Source: Candidatus Zhuqueibacterota bacterium (lineage in GTDB: Bacteria > Zhuqueibacterota > Zhuqueibacteria > Oceanimicrobiales > Oceanimicrobiaceae). From it: 64,000 nucleotides of DNA. The translations under genes and the position numbers were made by a program. Below are positions 611 through 16,029 of the stretch, piece by piece. Within the stretch, counting starts at the first letter, position 1. Each line of letters starts with the position of its first letter. The notes under the pieces are model-generated. The model did not search any database and was not told the DNA's origin. It saw only the letters and a list, made by a program, of their open reading frames with translations. The stretch covers positions 29,297 to 93,296 of the forward strand of contig JAJDAD010000009.1 in NCBI GenBank assembly GCA_029262055.1. Reading direction: 5' to 3'.

Positions 611-1540
611 ATGAAGATACTCGTAACTGGCGGCGCAGGGTATGTTGGCAGTAATCTCGTGCCAAAGCTGCTTGCCAGCGGCCACAAGGTGCGGGTGCTG
701 GACAACCTGATGTACAATGGTTATAGCCTGCTACCTTACTTTGGCGATGAGAATTTTGAGTTTGTCAAAGGAGATGTCCTGGACGCAGATGTTGTGCGCA
801 AATGCACGCACGACGCCGACATTATTATCCACCTGGCAGCCATCGTGGGATATCCGGCCTGCAAAAAGGATCCGAACCTGGCAAAAGACGTAAATGTGTT
901 CGGCACCCGGCTGGTCGACAAACATCGGAGCAAGAGCCAGCCTGTTTTCTACGCTTCCACCGGCAGCAACTACGGTGCGCTTGTCGGTGACATCTGCACC
1001 GAGGAGACACCCCTGAATCCATTGACGATTTACGGTACCACCAAGACGGAAGCCGAGCAAATGCTGCTCGACTCGGGCAGTGTGGTCTGTTATCGTTTTG
1101 CCACGGCGTTTGGCCTGTCACCGCGTATGCGGCTGGACTTGCTGATCAATGATTTTGTCTACCAGGCAGTCAAGAAGCGCAATTTGATTCTATATGAGAA
1201 AACGTACAAACGGACTTTTGTGCACGTGCGCGACATGGTGCGTTGCTTCCTGTTTACCATCGAGAATTACGACAAGATGGAGAATCAGGTCTACAACGTC
1301 GGCTCCAACCAGTTGAACTACAGCAAGGAAGAAGTGGCCCTGCTCATCAAAGAGAAGATCGATTTTTACCTGCACTTTGCGGATATCGGCAAAGATGAGG
1401 ACCAGCGCAACTACGAGGTCTCGTACGAGAAGATCAGCAAACTCGGCTTTGAAACGAGCATTACCGTCGATCAGGGCATCGATGAACTGATCAGGGCCTA
1501 CGAGCTAATCGATATCAAAAATCCATTCAGCAACATTTGA
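611..1540 (+). CDS. NAD-dependent sugar-nucleotide epimerase/dehydratase (extended SDR)
   Basis: N-terminal Rossmann motif MKILVTGGAGYVGSNL. An SDR-like YxxxK (YGTTK) lies mid-protein. AGGAGG-like RBS (gaaggagg) upstream. Confidence 0.85.
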   Translation: MKILVTGGAGYVGSNLVPKLLASGHKVRVLDNLMYNGYSLLPYFGDENFEFVKGDVLDADVVRKCTHDADIIIHLAAIVGYPACKKDPNLAKDVNVFGTRLVDKHRSKSQPVFYASTGSNYGALVGDICTEETPLNPLTIYGTTKTEAEQMLLDSGSVVCYRFATAFGLSPRMRLDLLINDFVYQAVKKRNLILYEKTYKRTFVHVRDMVRCFLFTIENYDKMENQVYNVGSNQLNYSKEEVALLIKEKIDFYLHFADIGKDEDQRNYEVSYEKISKLGFETSITVDQGIDELIRAYELIDIKNPFSNI

Positions 1541-1547
1541 GGCAATC

Positions 1548-2501
1548 ATGGCATTTTGGACCAACAAGCGCGTAGTGGTTACGGGTGGCGCCGGTTTTCT
1601 CGGTAGCTTTGTTGTCGACAAGTTGCGCACGGCAGGGGCTCAGGTGTTTGTGCCGCGCAAGCGTGATTTCAACTTTGTACACCTGAGCGACGCGCAAAGG
1701 TGCTTTCAGGAGCAGAAGCCGGAGGTCGTGATTCACGCTGCAGCCTACTACGGCGGGATCTGGATCAACCAGGTGCACCCGGGGAAGATCTACTTCGAGA
1801 ACCTGATCATGGGAGCAAATGTCATCGAAGCCGCCCGCCTGGCCAACGTGCAGAAGTTTGTCGGCATTGGTACCGCTTGTTCCTACCCCGGCTATCTCGA
1901 AGGAGAGCTGAAGGAGGAAAACCTCTGGGACGGCCCGCTGCACGACAGCGTGCGCAACTACGGCTTAACCAAAAAGATGATGGCGGTGCAGTGCTGGGCC
2001 TATCGCAAACAGTACGACTTCAACGGCATCCACCTGATCCTGACAAATCTGTACGGCCCTGGTGACTCCTACAACCCGGAGCGCTCCCACGTAGCAGCCG
2101 CCCTGGTGCGCAAATTTGTGGAAGGCAAGCTGCAGAATTCTCCCACGGTCGAGGTCTGGGGTACGGGCAAGCCGATTCGGGAATTCCTTTACGTTGAAGA
2201 TTGCGCCGAAGCCATCGTGCGCGCCGCTGAAAAATATGATGATGTCACACCGCTGAATATCGGCACCGGAGTCGGTACGTCGATTAAGGAGTTGGCGGAA
2301 ACGACGATGTCGGCGACAGGATACGAAGGCGAAATAGTCTGGAATTCGGACAAGCCGGACGGTCAGTTCAAGAAGATTCTGGACGTCAGCAGAATGGCTG
2401 AAGCCCTCGACTGGCAGGCGCCAACCGACCTGCACTCAGGGTTGGTCAGGACAGTGCAATGGTACTTGCAGAACAAAGAGGAAGCCGACAAGAAATGGTG
2501 A
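1548..2501 (+). CDS. fcl: GDP-L-fucose synthase family 3,5-epimerase/4-reductase
   Basis: VVVTGGAGFLGS, TNLYGPGDSY, SHVAAALVRKF, VEVWGTGKPIREFLYVED and KPDGQFKKILDVSRM align block by block with E. coli Fcl as I recall it. Confidence 0.7.
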   Translation: MAFWTNKRVVVTGGAGFLGSFVVDKLRTAGAQVFVPRKRDFNFVHLSDAQRCFQEQKPEVVIHAAAYYGGIWINQVHPGKIYFENLIMGANVIEAARLANVQKFVGIGTACSYPGYLEGELKEENLWDGPLHDSVRNYGLTKKMMAVQCWAYRKQYDFNGIHLILTNLYGPGDSYNPERSHVAAALVRKFVEGKLQNSPTVEVWGTGKPIREFLYVEDCAEAIVRAAEKYDDVTPLNIGTGVGTSIKELAETTMSATGYEGEIVWNSDKPDGQFKKILDVSRMAEALDWQAPTDLHSGLVRTVQWYLQNKEEADKKW

Positions 2502-2549
2502 TTGCCGCCAGAGAGCAATCGCTGTTAATCCGCTAACCGAGAAAGCAAT

Positions 2550-3599
2550 ATGGGTCGAGGTCCGACAGAGAAATACTATATAGAAATGAACGATGACTAT
2601 GTCGAAGGCAGCCTCACGTGCCTCAAACAGGAAGTCATCGAGCGTGAAATCAACACGGATTTTCCCCTCGTGTTGAATATCGAACCGACCAACGACTGCA
2701 ATCTGCGCTGCACGTTCTGTCCGCGCGATCAGACCGTGGCCATGCAAGGCACGCACTATCTGCCTCTGGCCACCTTCCAACGCATTGTCGATGAGGCTGT
2801 CGACTACCAGCAGCTCATCATGCTCAATCTGCACAAAGACGGGGAATCCCTGCTGCATCGCGAGCTGCCGGAAATGATCGACTACGCCAAAAAGCGGAAT
2901 GTCGCCAAGACCGTGCACATGAACACGAATGGCACTTTGCTGCACACCGACACCGCCAAGGCCATTCTGACAGCAGGCATCGACGACGTAACCGTCAGCA
3001 TCGATGCGGCCACGGCCGGGACCTACCGGACCTTGAAACAAAGCAGAGGGTTTGACCATCTCGACCGCAGCGTGGAATCTTTCATCGATTACAGAAACAA
3101 GATCGGCGGACATACCACCATCCGCGTCAAGATCATGGAGTTTGACCAGGTCAGTGAGGAGGAGATCGAGGCCTTTCGCACGCGCTGGACCGGCGTAGCC
3201 GACCAGGTGCAGGTGACCGGCGTGCACACCTGGAGCGGCGCCATCACAGATTTGGAGATCACGGATGAGACTTCTCCGACTCGTTACCCGTGCGCGATAC
3301 TGTGGTATGCGCTGGCAGTCAACTGCAACGGTAAAGTCTCGATCTGTAATCTTGACTGGAACTACTCCGGCGTTGTCGGCGACCTCGCACAGCAGAGTTT
3401 GCACCAGATCTGGAACGGCTTGCCCATGCGGAAAATTCGGCAGGCCCATCTTGACGGTGATTGGGGTTGTGTATCTGCCTGCAAGGAATGCGTCGTCTGG
3501 GTCAGCGTCGGTGATATGTTGCCCCACCTGCGCGCCCGGAATGAGTTCTTACCGGTTGCGAGAATCGAAAACGAGAAGCTGAGTCTGGTACAAGGATGA
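2550..3599 (+). CDS. Radical SAM enzyme with Cys-rich C-terminal (SPASM/twitch-like) domain
   Basis: CNLRCTFC (CX3CX2C) near the N-terminus. C-terminal Cys cluster YPCAILWY..NCNGKVSICNLDW..WGCVSACKECVVW. Confidence 0.8.
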   Translation: MGRGPTEKYYIEMNDDYVEGSLTCLKQEVIEREINTDFPLVLNIEPTNDCNLRCTFCPRDQTVAMQGTHYLPLATFQRIVDEAVDYQQLIMLNLHKDGESLLHRELPEMIDYAKKRNVAKTVHMNTNGTLLHTDTAKAILTAGIDDVTVSIDAATAGTYRTLKQSRGFDHLDRSVESFIDYRNKIGGHTTIRVKIMEFDQVSEEEIEAFRTRWTGVADQVQVTGVHTWSGAITDLEITDETSPTRYPCAILWYALAVNCNGKVSICNLDWNYSGVVGDLAQQSLHQIWNGLPMRKIRQAHLDGDWGCVSACKECVVWVSVGDMLPHLRARNEFLPVARIENEKLSLVQG

Positions 3600-3605
3600 T
3601 AATTC

Positions 3606-4691
3606 ATGAATAGAAGTGAGAGAAACTTTCTAGCGCCGCTCAAAAAAAACCGGCGCAACAAGACGTTTGTCATTGCAGAGGCAGGCGTTCACCACGGTGG
3701 CAGCCTTGAGGTGGGCAAAAAGCTTATCACCGCGGCAGCCAGTGCCGGTGCTGACGCCATCAAGTTTCAAACCTACAAGGCCGAGACGCTGGTGACACGC
3801 TGGGCAGCGCAGTACTGGCAAAGCGACACGGTGCCTGAAGCAGGTCCATCAGGTCAGGCCACGCAATTTGATTATTTTAAGAAGCGCGATTCGTTTGGTC
3901 CGGAGGAGTATGCCGAGCTGAGCCGGTACGCCGCGGAAGTGGGCATCCACTTTTCATCAACGCCCTTCGACCGGCAGTCGGTTGAGTGGCTCACACAGTT
4001 GGACGTACCGTTCTGGAAAATCGCTTCGGCGGACCTGGACAACTTTCCTTTGCTGGCGCAAGTGGCCCGTACCGGGAAGCCCGTCATTCTCTCTACCGGA
4101 GCTTCATATCTCAGGGAAGTTGACGAATCGGTGCGCTTCCTGCGGGCGGAGGGGGTCGCGGATTTAGCCCTTATGCACTGCAACCTGGCTTACCCGACGC
4201 CAAACAACGAAGCCAATCTGGGAAGAATCGCACTGCTGAGAGGGCAGTTCCCGGATTTGGTCATCGGTTACTCCGACCACACCATCCCGGATGAACATGT
4301 CACCGTTCCGGTGGCCGCCGTGACCCTGGGTGCGGAGATTATCGAGAAACACTTCACGTTGGACCGTTCGCTGCCTGAGGACGATCATTACCACTCAGTC
4401 AACCCGGTTCTTTTGCGTAGCATGATTCAACAAATCGAGACAGTGGAACAGGCAACCGGGATGCAGGCCGAGATAACCCCGTCCGAAGCGCCGGCGCGCC
4501 AGCAAGCCCGGCGCAGCCTGGTGGCGAACGAAGATATTGCCAGCGGTCAGGTTTTGACCCGCGACCTCCTGGTTGCCAAACGGCCCGGTGGCGGCATCTC
4601 GCCGAAAGAGCTGGATCACATTTTGGGCAAACGCACCAAAGTGCACATCGTCAAGGACGATTTCGTGCTTCCGGATGCTCTGGAACAGTAG
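3606..4691 (+). CDS. NeuB-family nonulosonic acid (sialic/legionaminic/pseudaminic-type) synthase
   Basis: FVIAEAGVHHGGSLEVGKKLI..GADAIKFQTYK and IGYSDHT motifs. C-terminal SAF-like segment RRSLVANEDIASGQVLTRDLL. Confidence 0.85.
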   Translation: MNRSERNFLAPLKKNRRNKTFVIAEAGVHHGGSLEVGKKLITAAASAGADAIKFQTYKAETLVTRWAAQYWQSDTVPEAGPSGQATQFDYFKKRDSFGPEEYAELSRYAAEVGIHFSSTPFDRQSVEWLTQLDVPFWKIASADLDNFPLLAQVARTGKPVILSTGASYLREVDESVRFLRAEGVADLALMHCNLAYPTPNNEANLGRIALLRGQFPDLVIGYSDHTIPDEHVTVPVAAVTLGAEIIEKHFTLDRSLPEDDHYHSVNPVLLRSMIQQIETVEQATGMQAEITPSEAPARQQARRSLVANEDIASGQVLTRDLLVAKRPGGGISPKELDHILGKRTKVHIVKDDFVLPDALEQ

Positions 4692-4705
4692 CCGGGGAGC
4701 CCGAA

Positions 4706-5368
4706 ATGAAAGTAAGCGTTGTCATCCCAACCTTCAATTACGACAAATATATCGCCCGCGCGATCCGAAGCTGCATCGAACAGTCTTTCCCGAAAGATGA
4801 GTTTGAGATTGTGGTGGTGAACGACGGCAGCAGCGACGTCACCCGGTACATTCTGCAGTCGTACGGCCATTGGATTACGGTGGTGGAGCACGAGGTAAAC
4901 CGGGGACTTCCGGAAGCGCGTAACGCCGGCATTGCGCGGGCGCGCGGCGAGTTTATCGTCAACCTGGACGCCGACGATTACCTGCACCGCAACTTTTTAG
5001 AAATCTGTCACCTGCACATGACTTTTAATGAGTGCGACGCGGTTGCCTCCGATTACTACCTGGTCGATGACAACGAGGCGTTTGTGGAGCGGATGACGGT
5101 GGCGCAAAAGCCCATCGCCTGCGGCATCATGTTCAGAAAGGAGCAGATGCAAGATGTCGGCCTGTACGATACGGCGTTGCACATTGGCGAGGACGTGGAC
5201 TTTCGTATACGCTTTGAACGTGCTTACAACATTGACACCATCAACCTGCCGCTCTATCGTTACCGGATGCACAAGAAAAGTCTGACCTCGGATCCGGCTT
5301 TGAATCAGAAGTATCTGGCAAAAGTGGCGCTCAAACATCAATGCGAGGTAAAGCACACATATGACTGA
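4706..5368 (+). CDS. Family 2 glycosyltransferase
   Basis: VSVVIPTFNYDKYI..VVNDGSSD..NLDADDYL (GT-A fold with DxD). Confidence 0.8.
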   Translation: MKVSVVIPTFNYDKYIARAIRSCIEQSFPKDEFEIVVVNDGSSDVTRYILQSYGHWITVVEHEVNRGLPEARNAGIARARGEFIVNLDADDYLHRNFLEICHLHMTFNECDAVASDYYLVDDNEAFVERMTVAQKPIACGIMFRKEQMQDVGLYDTALHIGEDVDFRIRFERAYNIDTINLPLYRYRMHKKSLTSDPALNQKYLAKVALKHQCEVKHTYD

Positions 5369-6134
5369 TGGGGCAACGTTGCGGAACGGCAAAAAGGTCA
5401 CAGCTATAATTCAGGCGCGCATGGGATCGACCCGGTTGCCCGGCAAATCCCTGGCCCTGATTGCCGGCCGGCCCATGTTGGCGCACATTATTGAACGCGT
5501 GCGACAGAGCCAGGTCGTCGATGACATCATGGTGGCAACCAGCGATCTGGTAGAGGACGACCTGCTGGCTGCGTTGGCCCGGGATTGTGGCGTCAGGGTA
5601 TTTAGAGGTGATCCGGATAATGTGCTCGACCGTTTTTATCAGGCTGCAAAACAAAGCCTGGCCGGAGTCATCGTTCGTGTCACCGGTGACGATCCTTTCA
5701 AGGATCCGGAAGTGCTGGATTTGATCGCGACAAAATTACTGCTGAATCCCGATTTGGACTACGTGAGCAATACCATCGAACCAAGCTATCCGCTAGGTCT
5801 GGATGTTGAGGCTTTTACCTTCGACGCACTGGCAAGAACGCAGCGTGAAGCCAGTACACATTATGAGCAGGAGCATGTGACACCGTACATCTGGCAGAAT
5901 ACGACAAAGTTCAAGATACGCAATGTTGCTTCCGGAGATGATTTCTCCGATCTGCGCTGGACCGTGGATTATCCGGCGGACCTGGAATTTGCGCGGGCTG
6001 TTTACGGGAGGTTGTACCGCGGAAGTGTTTTTACGATGCAGGATATTTTGACCCTGCTCGCGCTCGAGCCGGCACTCAGCGCCATCAACCAGCCGGCTCG
6101 TTTGGTACAAGCCGATTTTCAAGAGGCCGGCTGA
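5361..6134 (+). CDS. Cytidylyltransferase (CTP_transf_3 / SpsF-FlmC-like; candidate CMP-sugar synthetase)
   Basis: AIIQARMGSTRLPGKSLALIAGRPML motif. Start overlaps the stop of the preceding gene. Confidence 0.75.
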   Translation: MTDGATLRNGKKVTAIIQARMGSTRLPGKSLALIAGRPMLAHIIERVRQSQVVDDIMVATSDLVEDDLLAALARDCGVRVFRGDPDNVLDRFYQAAKQSLAGVIVRVTGDDPFKDPEVLDLIATKLLLNPDLDYVSNTIEPSYPLGLDVEAFTFDALARTQREASTHYEQEHVTPYIWQNTTKFKIRNVASGDDFSDLRWTVDYPADLEFARAVYGRLYRGSVFTMQDILTLLALEPALSAINQPARLVQADFQEAG

Positions 6135-6135
6135 G

Positions 6136-7320
6136 ATGATCCTGGAACGCATCGGCAAGAAGGAAAAGGAGTATGTCCGGCAGGTGCTGGCCTCGCAGTT
6201 CAGGTCGTCGGCCGGCAGTGAGATGACCGGCCGCCTGGAAGCAGCCTTTGCAGCCCGGTTTGGAGTAGACTACGCGGTGTCATTCATTAATGGCACCGCC
6301 ACATTGCACGCGGCCCTGGCCGCCGCGGGCGTGCAACCCGGCGACGAAGTCATCGTTCCGCCTTTGACCATGGCGAGCACGGCGTTCGCGGTTCTGCACG
6401 CCGATGCCATTCCTGTCTTCGCCGATGTCGACCCCGGCACCTGGACCCTTAGCCCTGAATCCATAAAGCGCGAGATAACAGCTAAGACAAGAGCTATCAT
6501 CCCGGTTTCACTTTACGGACTTGCTCCGGACATGCCGGCTATTATGGAAATTGCTGCGCGCCACAATCTATTCGTCCTGGAAGATGCAGCGCAATGTTTT
6601 CTCGGCTTTTGTCACGGACGAGTCGTGGGTAGCATCGGCCATGCCGCGAGCTTTAGCTTTCAAAGCTCAAAACATCTGGCCAGCGGCGAAGGCGGCATGA
6701 TCATCACTGCTAACCGCGAGCTTGCACTCAGAATCAGGCGTTTCAACAGTCTGGGATACAAGGCCGTGGGCGGCGCCGCAGCGCACGGCAAGATCTGCAA
6801 GGAAATGATCCAGGAGCCCGGTTACGAACGACATGCGTCCGTCGGCTGGAATTACCGCATGCCGGAACTTTGTGCGGCGGTGGCGTTGGCGCAACTTGAG
6901 CGCATCGATGATTTTGTCGAAATGCGCCGGAGCGTGGCCGGCTTGTTTGCTGAGGCGATCAAGGATTGTAGCTGGCTCACGCCACAAAGAGTGACGGCGG
7001 ATTACCAGCATGCCTACTGGTCGTACGCGTTGCGACTGGGCGAAGACGTGCCGTTTAGCTGGCAGGAGTTCCGGGACAAATATTCTGAACTGGGTGGTGA
7101 CGGCATTTACGGCGCATGGCAGTTGACCTACTTGGAGCCTGCGCTGCGCGGATTGCGGCTGCATCCGGACCAGTCGCAGCAATTCTCACAGGGTCTCTGT
7201 CCCGTTGCCGAAGCGCTGCAACCGCGATTGCTGCAGTTTAAGACCAACTATTTTGATTTAGATCTCGCTGGCAGAAAGGCCGACGCCTTGCAGGCGACGA
7301 TCTCATTCTTTGGCGCTTGA
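6136..7320 (+). CDS. DegT/DnrJ/EryC1/StrS-family PLP aminotransferase
   Basis: INGTATLHAALAA, DAAQ, and SFQSSKHLASGEGG (PLP lysine context). Confidence 0.85.
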   Translation: MILERIGKKEKEYVRQVLASQFRSSAGSEMTGRLEAAFAARFGVDYAVSFINGTATLHAALAAAGVQPGDEVIVPPLTMASTAFAVLHADAIPVFADVDPGTWTLSPESIKREITAKTRAIIPVSLYGLAPDMPAIMEIAARHNLFVLEDAAQCFLGFCHGRVVGSIGHAASFSFQSSKHLASGEGGMIITANRELALRIRRFNSLGYKAVGGAAAHGKICKEMIQEPGYERHASVGWNYRMPELCAAVALAQLERIDDFVEMRRSVAGLFAEAIKDCSWLTPQRVTADYQHAYWSYALRLGEDVPFSWQEFRDKYSELGGDGIYGAWQLTYLEPALRGLRLHPDQSQQFSQGLCPVAEALQPRLLQFKTNYFDLDLAGRKADALQATISFFGA

Positions 7321-7323: not shown

Positions 7324-8202
7324 ATGACAACAACAGAGAAGTCAGAATCGGCTCCGGCTGTTTCTTCGATGCCGATTTCAGTAGTCGTCTGCACCCTTAA
7401 CGAAGCGTTTAACATAGAAGAGTGTTTGGATTCAGTGAAAGCAAATCACCCGCGAGAAATCCTGGTTATCGATGCGCAAAGCGAAGACTTTACGGCTCGC
7501 AAAGCCAGAAACAAAGGTGCGGCGGTAACCCGGTGCGCCCGGAAAGGCTTGGCGTATCAACGTTATCTGGGGACAGAAAAAGCCTCACAGCCCTACGTCG
7601 CTTTTGTGGATGCAGATGATGTTCTGGACGAGGATTGTCTGCACCGCCTTTTGCTGGATCTGGAGGGAAATGACTGTGCCGCCGTGCAGGCAATCTCGCG
7701 GTCATACTCGCAACAGACCTACTGGGAAAGGGCGATGGAATCTCTGAATTATTTGCACTCGCGCAAGCCTGGGCCGAGCCGTATGGTTGGCCGGCCGGCA
7801 TTATACAGGAGAGACGTGTTGCGGCAAGTCGGTATCGATAAAGAGTGGGGTCGAATCGGCAACGAAGATACAGACCTGGCCATCCGTTACGAACTGCACG
7901 ACAAAAAGATGTGGATCGGATCCGGCTACTCTTCGCGCAAACATGCCCGGTCATTGCGGGAGTGGTTGCCGAAATGGCAGAAGTACGGTAGAGGGGACGC
8001 CAAATTAATGGTCAAGTACCCGGGCAAGCGCCGCTCGATTCTGCACCACCAATTGATCAACTACCCGGTCATCCTTTCCCTCGAAGCGCTGCGCAAGGGC
8101 TGCGCGCGATACGTGCCATTCTATATCTTATTTGGGTGGATGAGATTTTTTTTCATGATGGGTGAGTTTCTCTCCCCGAAAGGTAGCGCATGGCAAGAAT
8201 AG
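7324..8202 (+). CDS. Family 2 glycosyltransferase
   Basis: ISVVVCTLNEAFNIEECL..VIDAQSED..FVDADDVL. Confidence 0.75.
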   Translation: MTTTEKSESAPAVSSMPISVVVCTLNEAFNIEECLDSVKANHPREILVIDAQSEDFTARKARNKGAAVTRCARKGLAYQRYLGTEKASQPYVAFVDADDVLDEDCLHRLLLDLEGNDCAAVQAISRSYSQQTYWERAMESLNYLHSRKPGPSRMVGRPALYRRDVLRQVGIDKEWGRIGNEDTDLAIRYELHDKKMWIGSGYSSRKHARSLREWLPKWQKYGRGDAKLMVKYPGKRRSILHHQLINYPVILSLEALRKGCARYVPFYILFGWMRFFFMMGEFLSPKGSAWQE

Positions 8203-9788
8203 CGTTTGTCGACAGCATGGCGGTAGAAAAACTGGGCGTCATTTACCTGAGTTCAGCCCTGAAAGAATGCGGCCATGAGGTTGAGATTTTTTTGCAGCCG
8301 CTGGAGGCTGATTTTGTGGAACGCATCGCGCAGTTTCAGGCTGACGTTGTCGCTTTTGGATCTTTCATCGGCCAGGAGCCGGATGTCATCGACCTATTCT
8401 CTGCAATCAAGGCTCGTATCAAGGATATCAAGACCGTACAGGGTGGTCCCTCCACCATGATTTATTCGGACTTGATCTATCATCCGGTGGTAGATTTTGT
8501 CCTGAAGGGTGACGGCGAAGAGACATTGCCGGCACTGCTGCGTTCTCTGGATGACCGTATCCCGCCGCCAGCCATTCCGGGCCTGCTGTGGCAGGAGGAA
8601 GGCCAGGTTATCGAGAATCCGGGTGCGGCGCTCATCACCGATTTTAACTGTTATCCGCCGGCTGATCGCGACCTGCACATGAAATATGACAGCTTGCGGT
8701 CCAGCAGGACCAAGCCCTTTCTGATGACCAGGGGCTGCCCGTTTCCCTGTACCTTTTGCGGCACGGCTACTTTAAACAAGATTTTCAAAAAGGAAAAGGG
8801 GCTGCATTTTCGCTACGGCGATGGGGAGCGGACAATTGCCGAACTGGAGTACGTCAAACAAAACTACGGGCTGGAGTGGGTACAATTCCACGACGCGACA
8901 TTCAATGCCCATCCCAAGTTTGCCATGAAGTTCCTTGAGCTGTATGCCTCCCGGGACTTGCCACCTTTCATCTGCAATGTACGCTCGGAAAGTGTGAGTG
9001 AGGATCTGGTGCGGCTATTCAAGGAGGCGCGCTGCGACCGGGTCACTATGGGGATTCAGAGCGGGTCACAGAGAATCAGAAGAGAGCTGTCCGGCCGCAG
9101 GACACAGACGGACGAGAATATTCTGTACGCCTGCAAGCTCTTCAAGAAATACGGAATTCGCGTCAATATCGATTTGATTTTCGGCTGGCCGGGCGAAACC
9201 ATCGCGGAAGGCCTGGAGACCATAAGCTTCGCGCGCAAGGCGCAAGTAGATAAGGTCAACAACAATGTCATGATTTATTATCCGGATGCGCCCATCACCA
9301 GAACGGCGGCGGAACAAGGGTTTCTGGCCAAATTCCCTGACGTTTTTGAAGTGGCGCGCTTGTCAAATCCTTTGCACTCCCGCCTTTTGAAAACACCGGA
9401 TATTCAGAAACTGGTCAACCTGGACAAGTTGGCCCACTATTTTATCAGGAGTCGCGTTTTGGCGTGGCCGCCCATCAGAGACATCCTGCTGGGATTTAAG
9501 CCGAACCGGTTTTTCTATTTCCTGAAAAATCTTCCGGCATTGCGCGTCTCGATGAAGTACGATGCCCGGAGTTTCAAAGAAAAATTAAATATGATTCGCG
9601 GCTACATCGATGCAATCTTGCAGATGGATGAGAATCTCACAACTGCCGCTGCCAGAGCTGAACAAGCCGGGGCAGCGGTGCAGGCCTGCAAACAGGCCGG
9701 CAACAGCGGGACCGATGTGCAGGTGGTAGATGCTCTCGTTACGTCAAGGAAGGTTGTTGATGAAAGCCTGGTCAGTAAGCTGATCTGA
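8190..9788 (+). CDS. B12-binding-domain radical SAM enzyme (class B-like)
   Basis: N-terminal flavodoxin/B12-like segment MARIAFVDSMAVEKLGVIYLSSALKECGHEV. TRGCPFPCTFCGT (CX3CX2C). Confidence 0.8.
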   Translation: MARIAFVDSMAVEKLGVIYLSSALKECGHEVEIFLQPLEADFVERIAQFQADVVAFGSFIGQEPDVIDLFSAIKARIKDIKTVQGGPSTMIYSDLIYHPVVDFVLKGDGEETLPALLRSLDDRIPPPAIPGLLWQEEGQVIENPGAALITDFNCYPPADRDLHMKYDSLRSSRTKPFLMTRGCPFPCTFCGTATLNKIFKKEKGLHFRYGDGERTIAELEYVKQNYGLEWVQFHDATFNAHPKFAMKFLELYASRDLPPFICNVRSESVSEDLVRLFKEARCDRVTMGIQSGSQRIRRELSGRRTQTDENILYACKLFKKYGIRVNIDLIFGWPGETIAEGLETISFARKAQVDKVNNNVMIYYPDAPITRTAAEQGFLAKFPDVFEVARLSNPLHSRLLKTPDIQKLVNLDKLAHYFIRSRVLAWPPIRDILLGFKPNRFFYFLKNLPALRVSMKYDARSFKEKLNMIRGYIDAILQMDENLTTAAARAEQAGAAVQACKQAGNSGTDVQVVDALVTSRKVVDESLVSKLI

Positions 9789-9815
9789 AATATGCCGACT
9801 TAGGAGAATGAGAAA

Positions 9816-10988
9816 GTGAGTCAACCCCCGGATTATTCCAACAAAGTCGTGGTCGAGTCGTGCCCGGTTTGTGGTTCTGCTGCCAATGAGTTTTGCCAGG
9901 ACAGGCTGCTTCTGCCGCAAAAGGATGGCGATAAACACTACCGCTTGCGGGTTGCCCGTTGCGGCGCTTGCGGACATCATTATCAGACGCTGCTTTGGAC
10001 CGAAGCGCAGCTGCGGACCTACTACCAGTCTGAGACGACCTACTATCGTCCGGACCACTCAGAGATTCCGCCGCCGTCTCGGGCTCGTTTCAACTCAGTT
10101 TTGGCAGACCTTGCGCCGCATCTGCAGTCTGATTGGACCCACTTGGATGTTGGCGGGTACTCCGGGCATTTTTCCCGCTTTATGCGCTCGCATTGTGGCT
10201 CCTCTTTCTGCCTGGACGTTTGCGACCATCTGCAGCATGCAGTCGAGAACGACGTACAGGTGATCAGCAAGACTCTGAGCGACCTCGCGGCCTGCAATCC
10301 TGACCCAGCCTTCGATCTCATTACGCTAAATCATACACTCGAGCATCTTGGCGACCTCGAGGCAGCGCGCGACAGCGTTTGCAAGCTGCTAAGGGCGCGT
10401 GGATATTTGTTCATCGAGGTACCATACGAGCTCGAGGACGACGAGTCGATCATCGACTACACGTTGGATCACACGCATTACTTTACCCTGAATAGTCTGC
10501 ACACCTTCCTGGCCGGACACTTCGAAGTCCTGAGTCTGAAGCTGCACCGCTACCATAAGCGTGTCGATGTTGGCCAAGGATTTGCCCTCAAAGCCGTTGT
10601 TCGTAAAAGAGAGCAGGTCCGTGAGCAATCACACAGCAGAAATGGTGAGCGAGGGCGTGCAATCGTCAAAGCCATCGAAGCCCGTATCGCCGATTCACCC
10701 GAAGTCTACGTTTGGGGGTCAGGCTATCACACTCGCCTGTTGTTCTCCATGTCAAATCTTGTGCATGAAAAGACGACGACTTTGATTGATTCTGACAAAA
10801 GCCGGCAGGGCCGGACTGTCTTTGGCAAAAAAGTAGTGCATCCGTCGGCGCTGGAGAAAAGCGAGCAAGGGTGTCTGGTGATCTCATCTTACGATTATTG
10901 CGATGAGATCGAGGAGATAGCGCAGTCCTTTTTTCATCCTGATAATATCGTGAACCCCTATTCATGTCAGCAAGAGCATCTGCAATGA
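9816..10988 (+). CDS. SAM-dependent methyltransferase with N-terminal Zn ribbon (NDP-sugar C-methyltransferase-type architecture)
   Basis: GTG start with AGGAGA 8 nt upstream. CPVCGS..CGACGH Zn ribbon. LDVGGYSGHF motif I. C-terminal VYVWGSGYHTRLL Rossmann-like tail. Confidence 0.7.
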   Translation: MSQPPDYSNKVVVESCPVCGSAANEFCQDRLLLPQKDGDKHYRLRVARCGACGHHYQTLLWTEAQLRTYYQSETTYYRPDHSEIPPPSRARFNSVLADLAPHLQSDWTHLDVGGYSGHFSRFMRSHCGSSFCLDVCDHLQHAVENDVQVISKTLSDLAACNPDPAFDLITLNHTLEHLGDLEAARDSVCKLLRARGYLFIEVPYELEDDESIIDYTLDHTHYFTLNSLHTFLAGHFEVLSLKLHRYHKRVDVGQGFALKAVVRKREQVREQSHSRNGERGRAIVKAIEARIADSPEVYVWGSGYHTRLLFSMSNLVHEKTTTLIDSDKSRQGRTVFGKKVVHPSALEKSEQGCLVISSYDYCDEIEEIAQSFFHPDNIVNPYSCQQEHLQ

Positions 10989-11050
10989 GCCGAGGTCGAT
11001 TGCGCCGGCAAACCATCCCGGAGGGAGGCAAGAACAAAGAGGATTGCCAG

Positions 11051-12145
11051 ATGATGCAGGTTGCACATCATTCGCCGGTGGCGGAGCCGGTGCAATCGAA
11101 CATGCTAACGGATTTACAGCAGGACCTACGCCACACTGTTTGCCGCGTCCTGGGCAGTGTTTCTTCCGCGGAAATCGGTAGGGGCGCCGGACTTGGGCAG
11201 ACGCCAGGCTGGGATTCTATCAAACACATGGAGCTTATGCTGGTCCTTGAGGAAGAGTACGATGTAGCTTTGTCTTCCGAGTCTGTGGTTCACATGATGA
11301 CGTTTGAGGGCATCTGTGCGATGGTGCAGGATGGCGTGGGCGGAACCGGAACAACCACGGGCTTTGCAGAAGAGGATTTTGCAGAGGCCCTGGAAGAAGT
11401 GGGCCTCGCCGCGGGGGACCATGTTTTTGTGCAAAGTTCGGTCGCTACCTTTGGCCAGGTACAGAACCCACTGCCGACCTTCCAAAACGCTTTCCAGCGG
11501 GTGCTCGGTGCGGACGGCACCCTGGCTGTCCCAACTTTCAATTTCGGGTTCACCCGCGGGGAGAATTTTGATCTGTATGAGACCGAAGCGGAGACCGGCG
11601 TCTTCGCGGAACACATCCGGACACTACCCGGCGCGAAACGGTCGCAGCACCCGCCCTTCCATTCCGTTGCCGCCATCGGAAAACACGCTGAGACGCTGGC
11701 GAGGGCCAGGGGTAATTCCAGTTTCGATCGGGATTCGGTTTTCGGCAAGATGTACGACTTGGACTTTAAGGTTTGCATGTTCGGCACTAGTTTGCGGCAC
11801 AACACGTTCTTTCACTATGTTGAGGAGCAGGCCGGCGTGCCGTATCGTTTCTTCAAGACCTTTACTGCCACGGTAACTTCACCCGCCGGCAAAGAAACGC
11901 GCTCATACGATTACTTCGCCAGGTTCCCTGAACCCGCTATCGCGACGGACTTTCACGGCATAGGTGAACAACTGCTCGCGGAATTTGACGGGCGCAAGAC
12001 AACAGTGGGGAACGGCCCGATCTACCTGTTCCCGGCGCGTGCTTTTGTCGATATGCTGTCGTCCTGCCTGTCGCAAAGCCCGGATTTCCTGGTGGCCGAG
12101 TCGGACAAATGGAAAGTCCGCGAGAAAGCCTGGTGCCGGAAATGA
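11051..12145 (+). CDS. Fusion of an acyl/peptidyl carrier domain and an AAC(3)-family N-acyltransferase domain
   Basis: Carrier motif GWDSIKHMELMLVLEEEY (Ser codon at 11216-11218). AAC(3)-like GDHVFVQSSVATFG..GTLAVPTFNF..RSQHPPFHSVAAIG. ATG at 11051 has AGAGGA upstream; the track ORF starts at 10964. Confidence 0.7.
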   Translation: MMQVAHHSPVAEPVQSNMLTDLQQDLRHTVCRVLGSVSSAEIGRGAGLGQTPGWDSIKHMELMLVLEEEYDVALSSESVVHMMTFEGICAMVQDGVGGTGTTTGFAEEDFAEALEEVGLAAGDHVFVQSSVATFGQVQNPLPTFQNAFQRVLGADGTLAVPTFNFGFTRGENFDLYETEAETGVFAEHIRTLPGAKRSQHPPFHSVAAIGKHAETLARARGNSSFDRDSVFGKMYDLDFKVCMFGTSLRHNTFFHYVEEQAGVPYRFFKTFTATVTSPAGKETRSYDYFARFPEPAIATDFHGIGEQLLAEFDGRKTTVGNGPIYLFPARAFVDMLSSCLSQSPDFLVAESDKWKVREKAWCRK

Positions 12146-13716
12146 GCGCGTCCCACAAGACCCCCATCGAGTTTTTTGCCGGGCAGGCTGCCGAGCACCC
12201 TGGCGCCGTGGCAGTCATCTGCGACGGGAAAGGACTGACTTTTCGGGAGCTGGACCTGCTTTCCAACCGGATGGCGCGCTTCCTGCGGGCTCGCGGCGTC
12301 CGGCGGACCGAGCCCATTGCCATCCTTGCGAATAAAAATTTGCAAACGGTCGTCTCCATCCTGGCGGCCTGGAAGATCGGTTGTCCATACGTTCCCCTGG
12401 ACATCGAAGCACCTGGTCGGCGCATTCGTCACTTTCTGGATGTCTGTGCGGCGCGTTTTGCGGTGGTAGACGCGAATAAGTTTTCCCAGTGGCCTGAGAC
12501 TCTTTTGGAACGGCAGGAGTGTTTGGTGCTGGGGGAGAAACCGGATGAGCCGAGAGGGCATGAATTCTACCTGTCCGATCTCCCGGATTATTCTGAGGCT
12601 CCGCTCGACAGCGGCCACACGCCGGATGAGCTGGCTTATGTGATTTTCACTTCCGGCTCCACGGGTCTTCCAAAAGGCGTAATGATCAGCACCGGGAATC
12701 TGGCACATTTTATCCACTGGTGCGCTTGCACGCTTGCGATCGAGCCGCATGCCCGGGCTTTGAATATCGCCAACTTTTCTTTCGACCAGTCGGTCATGGA
12801 CCTGGCATTCATGCTCGGGTGCGGTGCGGAGCTGCATCTGTACGCAGCCTTGAAACATCCACTGGTGCTGGCGGATTACATTCGCGAACAAGCGATTCAG
12901 GTTCTTTCCACTGTGCCGACCATATTTAGCATGCTGCTCGACTCCCGCTACAATCTAAGCCCCGCTGCATTTGCTTCGCTGGAGACGTTGTTTATCGGGG
13001 GCGCCGCGTGTCCTCCCGGGTACTTGCAGCAATTCAATGAAAAAATGCCGGGCGCTGAGGTTTACAATATTTACGGTCCGACCGAGGCGACGGTGTATTG
13101 TGCGTACCACAAGTTTACGCCAAGCGAGTTGCGAAACGGGGTTGTCGACGTGCCGCTCGGTAAGCCGCTTCCCAATCACAGCCTGTGCCTTATCGACGAC
13201 AGACAGCAGCCCGTGCGCCAGCGGGGCGAGCTGGTGGTCCATGGGCCGCAAGTGATGGTCGGATACTGGCAGCAAGAGGAATTCACCCGGAGTGCTTTTG
13301 TCGAGGTGCAGGGTCAGGACGGCAAGGGATACCGCACGGGCGACATTGTCCGCGAGGGTCCGAACGGAGAATTGTACTTTGCAGGCCGGGCCAATGACAC
13401 CATCAAGTCAGGTGGCCATCGCATCGATCTGCATGAAGTCGAGGAAGCCATGCTGCAGAGCAAAGGTGTTGCCGCCGCCGTTGTCGTAGCGGTTCCGGAT
13501 CCACTTCTGGAGAACCGGCTCATGGCCTTCGTAACCGGCGCCGGTGGCGGACAGCCCGCAATTGAGGGGATTCAGCAAGGCTGTTCCGCGAACCTCCCCG
13601 GTTATATGGTGCCGGAAAAGATAACGGTTGTTGAGGAATTCCCTTTAAATTCCTCCGGAAAAATCGATAAGAAGAGGCTGATCAGTGACTTTGAGCGCGG
13701 CGACAACAGAAGATAG
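12142..13716 (+). CDS. DltA-like stand-alone adenylation enzyme (amino acid--carrier protein ligase)
   Basis: FTSGSTGLPKGV, FSFDQSVMDL, NIYGPTEATV, YRTGD, GRANDTIKSGGHRIDLHEVE, SSGKIDKKRL. ATGA overlap with the upstream stop; the track ORF starts at 12109. Confidence 0.85.
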   Translation: MSASHKTPIEFFAGQAAEHPGAVAVICDGKGLTFRELDLLSNRMARFLRARGVRRTEPIAILANKNLQTVVSILAAWKIGCPYVPLDIEAPGRRIRHFLDVCAARFAVVDANKFSQWPETLLERQECLVLGEKPDEPRGHEFYLSDLPDYSEAPLDSGHTPDELAYVIFTSGSTGLPKGVMISTGNLAHFIHWCACTLAIEPHARALNIANFSFDQSVMDLAFMLGCGAELHLYAALKHPLVLADYIREQAIQVLSTVPTIFSMLLDSRYNLSPAAFASLETLFIGGAACPPGYLQQFNEKMPGAEVYNIYGPTEATVYCAYHKFTPSELRNGVVDVPLGKPLPNHSLCLIDDRQQPVRQRGELVVHGPQVMVGYWQQEEFTRSAFVEVQGQDGKGYRTGDIVREGPNGELYFAGRANDTIKSGGHRIDLHEVEEAMLQSKGVAAAVVVAVPDPLLENRLMAFVTGAGGGQPAIEGIQQGCSANLPGYMVPEKITVVEEFPLNSSGKIDKKRLISDFERGDNRR

Positions 13717-15067
13717 AACAGATCAGTGCGAGTACATTGTGCCCGTATCCGGTCCTGTTCTTGATGAACAGGCGTCCATGCAGGAAATGATCGAGGCGGT
13801 CTGGTCGCTGCCGCGGGATATTATTTCGGACGGCTACGATGCAGCGTTGTCGATTCTGGCCGACGTCGTCCCGATGCAGATTCATGAATACCCGACCGGG
13901 ACTGAGTGCTTCACCTGGACGATTCCTGAAAAATGGACGTGCGATGAAGCGTATCTGGAGACATTGTCGGGACAGCGGCTGTTTTGCTACGCGGATAACC
14001 CATTACATGTTGTGTCTTATTCGTTGCCATTTGAGGGCGCGGTTTCACGGCAAGAGCTGTTTGCCCACTTGCACACGCACCCGAAAATCCCGGAGGCCGT
14101 ACCGTTTGTCTTCAAATACTACAAGCGGGACTGGGGCTTGTGCTGCTCGCGCAACTTGAAAAATGAGTTGCAGGAAGACCGGTACCGTGTGGTCATAAAG
14201 AGCCGGTTTACGGCGGGGACACTGAAAGTCGGAGAAGTGATCGTACCCGGAGAAACGGAGGACTGTGTTGTACTCTGTGCGCACTTATGCCATCCGGCAA
14301 TGGTCAATGACGGTCTCAGCGGCGTGGCTGTTGGCCTCGAAGTGCTGCGCGAACTGCTGAAGCGCCGCGGCCTGCGCTATACCTATCGTCTCCTGATCGT
14401 CCCCGAGACCATCGGCTCACTGGCGTACCTGAGCCGGAACGAGCACCTGATTCCGAAAATGAAGGCCGGTTTGTTCCTGGAGGCACTGGGTCTGGAGAAC
14501 CCGCACGCCCTGCAACTATCCCATTACGGCGATACGGCAGCAGACCTGTGTTTCCGGCTGGCACTCGATGAGCACGACCCGGATAGCTGGACTGCACCAT
14601 CCTGGGGCGTAATCTGTAATGATGAGCGACAGTTCAATGCGCCCGGCATCCGGGTGCCGATGCTATCGCTATCCCGGGTCCGGCACCGATCAGAGCCGGA
14701 TGGCCCATACCGGGAGTACCACTCAAGTCACGACACACCGGCGATTGTCTCATATGCGAGCCTGTCGGATTCGGCACAAGTGGTTCTGGAAATGCTGGAA
14801 ACCTTCGAGGCGGACCAGCTACCACTGAACAAGTTTAAGGGGGAGATTTTTTGTTCCGGATATGACATCGACTTTGATTTTGCCAATGACCCGGAGGACA
14901 GCATGTTGCTTTTTGAGGTAATGTTCCAGACTGATGGCACGCTGACGATTGCACAGATTGCCGCTAAAACCGGCAGGCCGTTTGCGAAGGTAAAGCGGAT
15001 CATCGACCAGTTTCACCGGCATGGTCTGGTGGATTATGTCCAGGCTCAAGCGGAATCAAGCTTATGA
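13685..15067 (+). CDS. Aminopeptidase-like (M28-like) DUF4910-type protein with C-terminal winged-helix-like tail
   Basis: PRDIISDGYDAALSIL..MQIHEYPTGTECFTWTIPEKW matches my recollection of the DUF4910/DUF2172 polysaccharide-locus family. The start may instead be the ATG at 13778. Confidence 0.6.
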   Translation: MTLSAATTEDRTDQCEYIVPVSGPVLDEQASMQEMIEAVWSLPRDIISDGYDAALSILADVVPMQIHEYPTGTECFTWTIPEKWTCDEAYLETLSGQRLFCYADNPLHVVSYSLPFEGAVSRQELFAHLHTHPKIPEAVPFVFKYYKRDWGLCCSRNLKNELQEDRYRVVIKSRFTAGTLKVGEVIVPGETEDCVVLCAHLCHPAMVNDGLSGVAVGLEVLRELLKRRGLRYTYRLLIVPETIGSLAYLSRNEHLIPKMKAGLFLEALGLENPHALQLSHYGDTAADLCFRLALDEHDPDSWTAPSWGVICNDERQFNAPGIRVPMLSLSRVRHRSEPDGPYREYHSSHDTPAIVSYASLSDSAQVVLEMLETFEADQLPLNKFKGEIFCSGYDIDFDFANDPEDSMLLFEVMFQTDGTLTIAQIAAKTGRPFAKVKRIIDQFHRHGLVDYVQAQAESSL

Positions 15068-16029
15068 ATCCCAGTGCCACCCAATCCCACTTGCACCTGG
15101 TGCGAGAGGCTCGCAGTAACGGGCAAATCACCAGAGCTCTCGGCCACTTGACCCGGGCCCTTAAACTGAACCCGCAAGACCAGGAGCTGCGCTCAGAGTT
15201 GGACGAGCTGGTCGGACAAATCGGTCAGGTGGATGCGCTTGCGCAGAAGTTGCACCGGCATGTCTGCACTCCGGTTCACATAATCCAGCAAGAGCCGGAA
15301 CTGGCCGTGGTCGCTCACAACATGCCGGTTGTTGTTTTCAATGCGTTGCCAAAGTCTGCCAGCGACTACATATCGGATGCGCTTGCGAAAGGGCTGAATC
15401 TGGACGATTATTTTGCTGTCACCGGTGTTTTCCCGAATAAGCTTTTACGGCGTGACGCCATGGCAAATGTCAAGGCCGGTGCCCTGCTTTATGACCACGT
15501 GGATGCGGCCGGGTTCAACCAGATTTTGCTAAGCCAGTATGTCGATCGCATGATTGTGCACGTTCGCGATCCGAGACAGGCGCTTGTTTCCTGGACGCAC
15601 CACTTCCGCCAAAGATACGAAAACAGGGACGAAGTGTTGGCGTTTTATCAATTCTGCCCGGATTACTATTCCTGGTCTTTTGAACGACAACTCGACTGGC
15701 AAATCGAGCACTACTTCCACCATTTTGTTGACTGGATTACCGGTTGGCTGGACGCGGACGAGAACCCCGGGTTCAAGCCTGCAATCTTGTTCTCAACCTT
15801 CGAGACCTTCCGGACTGACCCGCGCAAGTATTTCGAGGGGATATTGAAATTCTATGACATCGCCCCGGAGCGCTTCTCGTTCCCGGAAGTGACGCATCCA
15901 AGCCGGGAGCATTTTCGGCAAGGAAGCATGAACGAGTGGCAGCGCGTCTTTACGAACGCACAAATTGACAAGACTTCGGCCATGCTGCGTGGGCGGATAG
16001 CACCGACGTTCGGGTGGGATGTCGGTTAG
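15064..16029 (+). CDS. Sulfotransferase-family protein (divergent PAPS loop)
   Basis: NALPKSASDY (compare PKSGTTW), VHVRDPRQALVSWTHH, HFRQGSMNEWQRVF. ATGA overlap with the upstream gene. Confidence 0.6.
   Translation: MNPSATQSHLHLVREARSNGQITRALGHLTRALKLNPQDQELRSELDELVGQIGQVDALAQKLHRHVCTPVHIIQQEPELAVVAHNMPVVVFNALPKSASDYISDALAKGLNLDDYFAVTGVFPNKLLRRDAMANVKAGALLYDHVDAAGFNQILLSQYVDRMIVHVRDPRQALVSWTHHFRQRYENRDEVLAFYQFCPDYYSWSFERQLDWQIEHYFHHFVDWITGWLDADENPGFKPAILFSTFETFRTDPRKYFEGILKFYDIAPERFSFPEVTHPSREHFRQGSMNEWQRVFTNAQIDKTSAMLRGRIAPTFGWDVG

Follow-up and report, generated by a model that had tools for sequence, protein, structure and literature searches.

A predicted carrier-dependent N-acylation cassette with an AAC(3)-fold transferase in a flagellin glycosylation island of Candidatus Zhuqueibacterota

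The three-gene cassette

We describe a cassette of three genes from a Candidatus Zhuqueibacterota bacterium, located in a 64,000-nucleotide stretch of contig JAJDAD010000009.1 (positions 29,297 to 93,296, assembly GCA_029262055.1) that is referred to here as the window. The first gene encodes an acyl carrier protein (ACP) domain fused to an N-acyltransferase (NAT) domain with the fold of the AAC(3) enzymes, the second a stand-alone adenylation enzyme (the ligase), and the third a protein of the DUF4910 family. A preliminary description, made from the sequence alone, had proposed these open reading frames (ORFs) as an aminoacylation module, and all three were confirmed at the coordinates given there (11051-12145, 12142-13716 and 13685-15067). 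Coordinates are positions within the window, and the three ORFs lie on the plus strand. These are not chance ORFs, since homologues of every protein are numerous and their arrangement is conserved. The features of the cassette, with the evidence for each, are as follows (aa, amino acids).

11051..12145 (+): ACP-AAC(3) fusion protein, 364 aa; Pfam Antibiotic_NAT 5e-40, nine orthologues that keep both domains, AlphaFold model
11090..11341 (+): predicted acyl carrier domain, aa 14-97; ACP family profile, PP-binding in relatives, four predicted helices, W-D-S-x-K-H-M-E
11333..11362 (+): Gly/Thr-rich linker GVGGTGTTTG from carrier to transferase; sequence, no secondary structure and lower pLDDT in the model
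11369..12130 (+): AAC(3)-fold (Antibiotic_NAT) N-acyltransferase domain; Foldseek, catalytic-residue alignment
11804-11824 (+): catalytic motif Thr252-x2-His255-x2-Glu258; alignment to meta-AAC0038
12142..13716 (+): stand-alone adenylation enzyme of the nonribosomal peptide synthetase (NRPS) type, 524 aa; TIGR01733, PDB matches, pocket code DQMSFGIVYK
13685..15067 (+): DUF4910/DUF2172/winged helix-turn-helix (wHTH) protein of the CA_C2195/Cj1295 family; Pfam, 3K9T alignment

Carrier and transferase domains of the fusion protein

The motif GWDSIKHMEL occupies residues 53-62 of the fusion protein, and the TCT codon of Ser56 lies at 11216-11218, exactly as in the preliminary description. A profile of 23 carrier-family sequences matches more than 100 solved ACPs (best 2LML, 6.5e-12; E. 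coli AcpP, about 1e-8) and aligns Ser56 with their phosphopantetheine (DSL) serine, and 21 of the 23 members match the Pfam PP-binding domain individually. Both domains are kept in nine orthologues of the fusion (46-55% identity), in which W-D-S-x-K-H-M-E is invariant; it is also invariant, Ser56 included, in alignments A1 and A3. A scan of one genome collection returned no close orthologue of the fusion. In an AlphaFold model of the fusion (72 homologues; predicted local distance difference test (pLDDT) 91, predicted template modelling score (pTM) 0.78), the carrier domain consists of helices 14-34, 56-70, 76-81 and 85-97, with Ser56 opening helix 2. Taking profile and model together, we assign the segment as a true ACP domain with a predicted phosphopantetheine site at Ser56. 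The same motif defines a family of free-standing proteins of 75-90 aa in 57 genome loci.

The remainder of the ORF was described as an N-acyltransferase domain of the AAC(3) fold, and profile, Foldseek and model all bear this out. Antibiotic_NAT (PF02522) matches residues 127-339 with 137.9 bits against a cut-off of 25 (E 5e-40). A Foldseek search with the fusion model retrieved AAC(3)-IIIb (6mb9, 9e-21; target-normalised template modelling (TM) score 0.79-0.83) and FrbF (3sma, 7e-20), as well as meta-AAC0038, AAC(3)-IVa, YokD and BA2930 (E 1e-19 to 1e-20). Residues Thr252, His255 and Glu258 align with Thr165, His168 and Glu171 of meta-AAC0038, which respectively stabilise the intermediate, act as general base and activate the histidine (PMC8956665), and Gly210 and Gly245 align with its conserved Gly122 and Gly158. 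The catalytic His and Glu are kept in 21/21 ACP-fused and 14/14 DUF4910-fused homologues. From these alignments the AAC(3)-fold transferase domain appears CATALYTICALLY intact. Gln128, which replaces His29 of meta-AAC0038 and is shared by nine close orthologues, was rejected as a marker of ACP fusions: 12 distant ACP fusions keep the histidine.

Membership in the Antibiotic_NAT family could mean that the ORF is an aminoglycoside-resistance gene located here by chance. However, the NCBIfam AAC_3 model (NF033082) gives 96.7 bits against a cut-off of 270, the subtype models give 22-58 bits against 420-675, and the transferase is only about 25% identical to aminoglycoside-resistance enzymes. It also forms one polypeptide with an ACP, its ORF is coupled in translation to a ligase, and its place within nonulosonate and flagellin operons is conserved. 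We give a resistance gene next to no credence here. The author of the preliminary description knew of no characterised carrier-fed transferase of this fold, and our literature search agrees: no paper was found that characterises a carrier-dependent AAC(3)/Antibiotic_NAT enzyme.

Adenylation enzyme

As first reported, the ligase ORF overlaps the fusion by ATGA, which is read directly from the sequence at 12142-12145; translation could alternatively begin at an in-frame ATG at 12109. Pfam calls the product an AMP-binding enzyme (7e-82), and it passes the curated cut-off of the amino acid adenylation model TIGR01733 (336.1 bits versus 317.4). The reported core motifs of an NRPS adenylation (A) domain are present from A3 to A10 (TSGSTGLPKG, FDQSV, NIYGPTE, YRTGD, GRANDTIKSGGHRI, SSGKIDKK). 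However, the accompanying claim that the motifs are very close to those of DltA was overstated. In a PDB search the ligase scored about as well against DltA as against many NRPS A domains, the sequence is 33% identical to B. subtilis DltA and 31% to GrsA-PheA, and the DltA models fall far under their cut-offs (TIGR01734, 260.7 bits versus 559.85; NF003417, 268.9 versus 476). The substrate pocket differs as well. Ten-residue codes, extracted against PheA and DltA sequences that had been checked against 1AMU and 3E7W, read DQMSFGIVYK for the window ligase, DLMTMCTVAK for B. subtilis DltA and DAWTIAAICK for PheA; the window ligase and DltA agree at 4 of 10 positions, including the two invariant ones. 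We class the protein as a generic stand-alone NRPS-type A domain that is neither a DltA orthologue nor DltA-like in specificity.

In the 1AMU alignment Asp215 and Lys507 correspond to PheA Asp235, which contacts the alpha-amine, and Lys517, which contacts the carboxylate, as expected for an alpha-amino acid substrate. These residues bear on the possibility that the ligase activates a fatty, hydroxy or aryl acid and that the module installs an ordinary acyl group. General acyl-CoA ligase models do score well (for example PRK06187, 268 bits), and the ACP/FabG/AMP-ligase cassettes of other flagellin islands are thought to handle fatty acids (PMC7874193, PMC4875605). However, the amino acid adenylation model alone passes its curated cut-off, the Asp235 and Lys517 equivalents are kept in all ligase orthologues, and the closest structures are NRPS A domains. 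A substrate other than an amino acid is very unlikely on this evidence.

The code DQMSFG(I/M)VYK is invariant across the ligases that follow ACP-NAT fusions (DQMSFGMVYK, with I in the window) despite 46-52% identity, and is conserved in 13 ligase orthologues at 40-54% identity. Because the code is constant while the ligases diverge, one specific substrate is likely to be conserved. Bulky hydrophobic side chains (Met, Phe, Ile/Met, Val, Tyr) line the pocket, and the codes of related ligases grade via DQLSIGLVYK to DILS(C/I)GLIYK, with a resemblance to glycine-type codes. Of these, module 2 of LgrA has DIANLCIIYK, and the textbook glycine code is DILQLG(L/M)IWK. Predicting specificity from the pocket residues, as the preliminary description had suggested, thus produced a conserved code, but one that fits no known code. 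The comparison gives a hint of a small neutral amino acid, with glycine as the leading guess.

The code DQMSFGMVYK was also observed in Pseudomonas sp. H3(2019) and an Endozoicomonas. It is carried by ligases at 45-47% identity in loci L080 (Pseudomonas sp. H3(2019), VMSG01000002.1, 10001-11533) and L081. Both ligases sit in a cluster resembling those of polyketide synthases (PKS), with a 4'-phosphopantetheinyl transferase (PPTase), an enoyl-CoA hydratase, a trans-AT-like acyltransferase and an RND efflux system, to which L081 adds MbtH, a thioesterase and a 3-hydroxy-3-methylglutaryl (HMG)-CoA synthase. Apparently these PKS-like clusters use the same amino acid as a building block. Assigning the substrate through these ligase orthologues of cultured organisms was tried and abandoned: the cluster has no known product and no assignment follows.

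DUF4910 protein

The third ORF matches DUF4910 with 227.6 bits (cut-off 26.6; 1e-67) and DUF2172 with 96.9 bits (cut-off 27; 9e-28), and has weak matches to M28 (28.7 bits) and HTH_47 (20.9 bits, cut-off 27.1). It aligns with the crystal structure 3K9T (CA_C2195) at 1e-68, through the wHTH to residue 449. The GTG start at 13685 overlaps the ligase by 32 nt; translation may instead begin at the ATG at 13778, in agreement with the length of the homologues.

In the 3K9T alignment the zinc ligands His203, Asp209 and His346 are kept, whereas Ala205 takes the place of the M28 catalytic Asp and Pro240 that of the general-base Glu (residue roles from PMC4000134). The same holds for the DUF4910/DUF2172/HTH_47 family (PIRSF015244), which has a single His/Asp/His zinc site, with Ser, Ala or Gly and Pro in place of the M28 Asp and Glu (PMC4000134). 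Since both catalytic residues are replaced, the protein is no conventional aminopeptidase. The M28-like aminopeptidase of the preliminary description is therefore not a functional one, a single zinc site being what remains, and the suggestion that it trims or edits the product finds no support. The His/Asp/His site resembles that of LmbE-type sugar deacetylases. From the sequence, the protein is more likely to be a de-N-acetylase, or a partner, than a trimming peptidase.

Conserved gene order and domain fusions

The fusion, an overlapping downstream ligase and an adjacent DUF4910 gene occur together in 6/6 metagenomic fusion loci (the window, L001, L002, L077, L078 and L079), with DUF4910 downstream in the window, L001, L002 and L078 and upstream in L077 and L079. 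All are nonulosonate or flagellin islands. A search for the same trio in other genomes, also foreseen in the preliminary description, thus recovered it in every fusion locus retrieved. The three-gene module stands, but the unit is larger than described and takes in a B12-binding radical S-adenosylmethionine (SAM) enzyme, a methyltransferase and sulfotransferases as well. The B12-radical SAM gene lies directly upstream in four of the six loci; it precedes the fusion in L001, L002 and L003 (6e-233), with a weaker match in L078. A methyltransferase adjoins the cassette in L001, L078 and L079, and sulfotransferases also follow it in L001, L002 and L078. The B12-radical SAM enzyme may C-methylate the carrier-bound group or the sugar. 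The downstream sulfotransferases suggest that the flagellin glycan or the acyl group is sulfated.

The NAT gene adjoins DUF4910 in 9 of 14 NAT-anchored genome loci, often with NeuB and a CMP-transferase. In Campylobacter (L011 and L012) the NAT-DUF4910 pair sits with FabH, a small ORF with a DSL motif and a ketoreductase (KR). The 76-aa ORF between FabH and KR in L011 has a weak match to the ACP profile (E 0.003) and, from its motif and position, is a probable ACP. A 912-codon open frame upstream of the NAT in L008 has no Pfam domain and is probably not a single gene.

Domain architectures were collected with an exhaustive HMMER search of 1.84 billion representative proteins, which gave 4466 homologues; 223 sequences were classified, and the fusion counts are drawn from the best-scoring homologues, not from a whole-family census. 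ACP-NAT fusions make up 21 of the 223, many of them just 27-37% identical to the window protein, and NAT-DUF4910 fusions 14. Among the best 150 representatives of the search, about 13-16 have the ACP-NAT architecture. Several single chains combine further parts. By Pfam, P0147 joins an AMP-binding A domain, PP-binding and NAT; P0124 joins NAT, DUF4910 and a PPTase domain; P0210 is NAT with FkbH, P0088 is ACP-NAT with a HAD domain, P0136 is MaoC with NAT, and P0079 is PP-binding with NAT. The PPTase domain of P0124 lends indirect support to phosphopantetheinylation of the carrier. In P0283 the NAT is joined to a ligase whose code, DQLSIGLVYK, belongs to the same family, and P0122 and P0166 are NAT-methyltransferase fusions. 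In a Rhodospirillaceae metagenome-assembled genome (L010, PBNV01000031.1, 6804-10993), a 739-codon ORF combines lipoyl, 2-oxoacid dehydrogenase E2, ACP (NWDSM) and AAC(3) domains, downstream of an E1 gene with fused alpha and beta parts and with a DUF4910 gene nearby. Its domains suggest an oxo-acid dehydrogenase linked to a sugar N-acyltransferase that is fed by a carrier.

Independent fusions connect every pair of cassette parts. At least four unrelated systems load the carrier while the NAT stays the same, a pattern that is hard to explain unless the NAT draws on the carrier for its acyl group. Comparative genomics of this kind strongly supports a carrier-fed AAC(3) transferase.

Proposed function

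[quoted passage not shown] The N-acyl groups on these sugars, among them acetyl, glyceroyl, hydroxybutyryl, alanyl and glutamyl, determine antigenicity, recognition by phages and antibodies, and motility phenotypes. We propose that the cassette is an acyl-carrier-dependent N-acylation module that puts an aminoacyl group on a flagellin-glycan nonulosonic acid or its nucleotide-sugar precursor, and we consider this reasonably probable. A cellular PPTase would prime Ser56 of the fusion, and the stand-alone A domain would adenylate one alpha-amino acid and thioesterify it onto the phosphopantetheine arm. The tethered aminoacyl group may optionally be tailored by the B12-radical SAM enzyme and the SAM methyltransferase. 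The AAC(3)-fold domain (Thr252/His255/Glu258) would then deprotonate the presumed sugar amine, which would attack the thioester on the protein's own carrier instead of acetyl-CoA. Adenylation, tethering in cis and transfer to a sugar amine had been put forward in the preliminary description; the trio's 6/6 synteny, the catalytic residues and the fusions point the same way.

The DUF4910 protein, the obligate partner of this transferase clade, would most likely free the acceptor amine by removing an N-acetyl group, so that the two enzymes together would perform an 'N-acyl swap'. The N5 of a nonulosonate derives from the acetamido group of N-acetylglucosamine, and an N5 variant needs removal of the original acetyl. 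De-N-acetylation is the least secure step; it is argued from the phenotype of Cj1295, from pathway logic and by analogy with the LmbE-like zinc site. Cj1295, a DUF4910 protein of C. jejuni, is required for N5-(2,3-di-O-methylglyceroyl) pseudaminic acid, and removal of the N5 acetyl is the role that its discoverers suggested for it (PMC3068675).

Several observations weigh against the proposed function. The window carrier segment alone scores 17.6-19.3 bits for PP-binding, just below the Pfam gathering cut-off of 20.8, although the family profile and the structure model support an ACP. The substrate guess rests on glycine-type codes that the window code matches at 4 of 10 positions. DUF4910 has no obvious general base, and a hydrolase role for it is unproven (PMC4000134). 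Strain 11168 of C. jejuni still makes the Cj1295-dependent sugar with the AAC(3) gene Cj1296/7 out of frame, which makes at least that paralogue dispensable there (PMC6003734). NAT-DUF4910 pairs are found with no nearby ACP or ligase in L006, L007, L009, L013 and L014, and the clade is therefore not uniformly carrier-dependent. Finally, the AAC(3) enzymes and FrbF characterised so far all use acetyl-CoA.

The last two of these points also favour a reversal of roles, in which DUF4910 transacylates the carrier-bound aminoacyl group to the sugar and the AAC(3) domain is a plain acetyl-CoA N-acetyltransferase, acetylating either the alpha-amine of the aminoacyl group or, in place of PseH/LegH, the 4-amino group of the sugar. 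Transacylation has been suggested for DUF4910 by Das et al. (PMC4000134), the island has no PseH/LegH-type gene, and N-acetyl-aminoacyl groups are known on nonulosonic acids. However, the ACP-NAT combination also occurs where the acyl supply carries no amine, as with E1/E2 in L010, FkbH glyceryl in P0088 and P0210, and FabH/KR in Campylobacter, and the NAT there must act on the sugar. In addition, among the 223 classified homologues the ACP is fused to NAT and never to DUF4910. We judge reversed roles, the main rival reading, to be quite improbable.

Transfer from the carrier by the NAT may have a wider bearing. A large branch of the AAC(3)/Antibiotic_NAT family might consist of ACP-dependent N-acyltransferases that form, with DUF4910, a general 'N-acyl swap' machine generating much of the N-acyl diversity of nonulosonates. 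Acyl supply would be modular: aminoacyl groups from A domains, glyceroyl from FkbH, hydroxybutyryl from FabH/KR and oxo-acid-derived groups from E1/E2, with glycyl or another small aminoacyl group in the window. We offer this extension tentatively, as a possibility short of an even chance. If the assignment is true, the window enzyme would be the first carrier-fed enzyme of the AAC(3) fold. It would widen the chemistry of a fold studied almost solely as an antibiotic-resistance determinant, suggest a possible origin of the resistance AAC(3)s, and provide parts for glyco-engineering of N-acyl nonulosonates.

Comparison with known systems

The enzymes that install non-acetyl groups on nonulosonic acids are largely unknown (PMC5378307). 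One close counterpart of the cassette is Cj1295/Cj1296/7 of C. jejuni, in which DUF4910 likewise lies beside one or more AAC(3)-fold transferases in a pseudaminic/legionaminic flagellin island, with carrier machinery near; the same layout is seen in the Campylobacter loci L011 and L012. ACP genes presumably lie near Cj1295/Cj1296 in the C. jejuni annotation. Unlike in the window, the Campylobacter ACP is a separate small gene, fed with hydroxy-acyl groups by FkbH or FabH/KR-type enzymes instead of by an amino-acid adenylating enzyme, and the NAT genes are phase-variable. One of these, Cj1296/7, is a pseudogene in strain 11168 and intact in 12567 (PMC6003734). A strain in which the FkbH-domain gene cj1302 is a pseudogene lacks the di-O-methylglyceroyl pseudaminic acid (PMC7099621). 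A phenotype for Cj1295/DUF4910 dates from 2010 and a crystal structure from 2014, with no chemistry assigned so far, and a 2026 survey still lists cj1295 as a putative transferase (PMC13130089). The window fusion and its relatives give a testable assignment: the AAC(3)-fold protein as ACP-dependent N-acyltransferase, DUF4910 as its obligate partner and the ligase as donor selector. Flagellin glycans of C. jejuni 12661/12664 show unexplained +15 Da forms relative to Pse5Ac7Ac and Pse5Ac7Am (PMC7099621). By our reckoning this is the mass of an acetyl-to-glycyl swap, and an aminoacyl-carrier/NAT route may account for it.

Das et al. (2014) linked DUF4910 to aminosugar NATs, ACP and other sugar enzymes, and suggested transacylation or deacylation (PMC4000134). 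The C. acetobutylicum genes CA_C2195-CA_C2199 share with the window the three domains of the DUF4910 protein, the His/Asp/His site and the loss of the M28 Asp/Glu, with aminosugar NATs and an ACP nearby; their function is proposed from context only (PMC4000134). However, they include an ATP-grasp aminoacyl ligase and a NAT-HAD fusion, and have neither an ACP-NAT fusion nor an A-domain ligase.

The characterised AAC(3) enzymes and FrbF share the fold, the Thr/His/Glu motif and N-acylation of an amino sugar or amine with the window fusion (PMC8956665). In contrast to these single-domain users of acetyl-CoA, the window protein brings along a carrier domain, and among its relatives are fusions to ligases, E2 domains, FkbH, DUF4910 or PPTase. 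The cassette also resembles DltA/DltC, where a free-standing adenylation enzyme loads an amino acid on a dedicated small carrier for decoration of a surface glycopolymer. The window system would form an amide with a sugar amine in the cytoplasm, whereas the Dlt product is an ester outside the membrane, and DltB (MBOAT), DltC and DltD were not found among the island genes scanned with Pfam. ACP-thioester acyl or aminoacyl groups are moved to amino-sugar amines by BtrI/BtrJ/BtrH/BtrG of butirosin biosynthesis and by LpxD of lipid A biosynthesis. BtrH has a papain-like N-terminal domain and LpxD is a left-handed beta-helix, and folds, loading enzymes and targets are unlike those of the window.

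Carrier-dependent N-acylation of amino sugars by other folds, the DltA/DltC logic and the DUF4910-NAT-ACP neighbourhood (Das 2014; Cj1295/Cj1296) are thus already known. An AAC(3)-fold enzyme with its own ACP and a dedicated amino-acid adenylating enzyme, and the wider set of fusions tying the fold to carriers, have not been described before.

The ACP/3-oxoacyl-ACP reductase/AMP-ligase cassette of Aeromonas and Enterobacteriaceae has an ACP of the same WDS(L/I)KHME family as the window (PMC7874193, PMC4875605), and a stand-alone ACP of this family adjoins a homologous ligase in 29 of 57 genome loci. It differs in its free ACP, an intervening short-chain dehydrogenase/reductase (SDR), the ligase code DNFF(I/V)GVCIK and a hexapeptide-repeat (LbH) transferase in place of AAC(3). 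Locus L020 (9968-13212) and about 28 similar loci have a free WDSLKHME ACP, an SDR, a DNFF(I/V)GVCIK ligase and a hexapeptide-repeat transferase, usually with DegT near, and this cassette seems to be orf1-3 of the Aeromonas flagellin islands. Shewanella sfmABCDE was set aside as a parallel; its paper refers to Cj1295, but the genes it deals with are others. No modifying enzymes are named in the papers on Tannerella.

Genomic context in the window

The cassette lies in a flagellin glycosylation island built around nonulosonic acid genes. Besides the cassette, the island contains the following features (GT, glycosyltransferase).

611..7320 (+): nonulosonic-acid genes, comprising two epimerase/dehydratases, radical SAM/SPASM, NeuB, GT2, CMP-transferase and DegT aminotransferase; Pfam
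2550-3599: radical SAM/SPASM protein, between the epimerases and NeuB
8190..9788 (+): B12-binding radical SAM enzyme, conserved upstream companion; Pfam
9816..10988 (+): SAM-dependent methyltransferase (Methyltransf_23), variable companion; Pfam
15064-16029 and 16014-17876 (+): two sulfotransferase-domain proteins, one with an N-terminal TPR-like segment; Pfam Sulfotransfer_1
18016-20850: 944-aa protein with GT1 and GT2 glycosyltransferase domains and TPR repeats

By Pfam the order is two epimerase/dehydratases, radical SAM/SPASM, NeuB, GT2, CMP-sugar synthetase, DegT, a second GT2, B12-radical SAM, methyltransferase, the three cassette genes, two sulfotransferases and the GT1+GT2+TPR protein, with fliS, fliD and an FlgM-like gene further downstream. 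The genes from 611 to 17876 lie on a single strand with intergenic spacing of -32 to +62 nt, and the region therefore reads as one operon. The nonulosonic-acid genes are the presumed source of the acceptor sugar.

A Pfam scan of the window's 17 island genes found neither a GNAT nor a hexapeptide N-acetyltransferase, and the same holds for L001 and L002; apart from the AAC(3) domain, these three islands hold no other N-acyltransferase, and they hold no PseH/LegH-type gene and no recognisable PseG/LegG. Together with the presence of DegT, NeuB and the CMP-transferase, this gap would fit an earlier step for the fusion, which would replace PseH/LegH and acylate the 4-amino group of the NDP-4-amino-4,6-dideoxyhexose made by DegT, the nitrogen that becomes N7. 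DUF4910 would then have another role, as structural partner, in nucleotide-sugar hydrolysis or in proofreading of the product. However, such a step leaves the consistent fusion and adjacency of DUF4910 to this NAT clade unexplained, and the sole genetic datum, from Cj1295, concerns an N5 acyl variant. We regard an early N7 acylation as unlikely, and favour aminoacylation of an amine freed by DUF4910.

The 944-aa GT1+GT2+TPR protein is probably the flagellin glycosyltransferase; versions of 1800-2300 aa end the islands of L001, L002 and L020. Homologues of the radical SAM/SPASM protein occur in the nonulosonate loci L010 (17027-18253) and L077 (5189-6292). The remaining content of the window includes chemotaxis genes, fliM and menaquinone genes. 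Adjoining the FlgM-like gene is a response regulator fused to a SpoIIE/PP2C phosphatase (24870-26216, minus strand). A protoglobin-coupled chemoreceptor is encoded at 31588-33621 (plus strand), and a 1121-aa Ser/Thr kinase with AAA_16 and TPR domains at 59165-62530 (minus strand).

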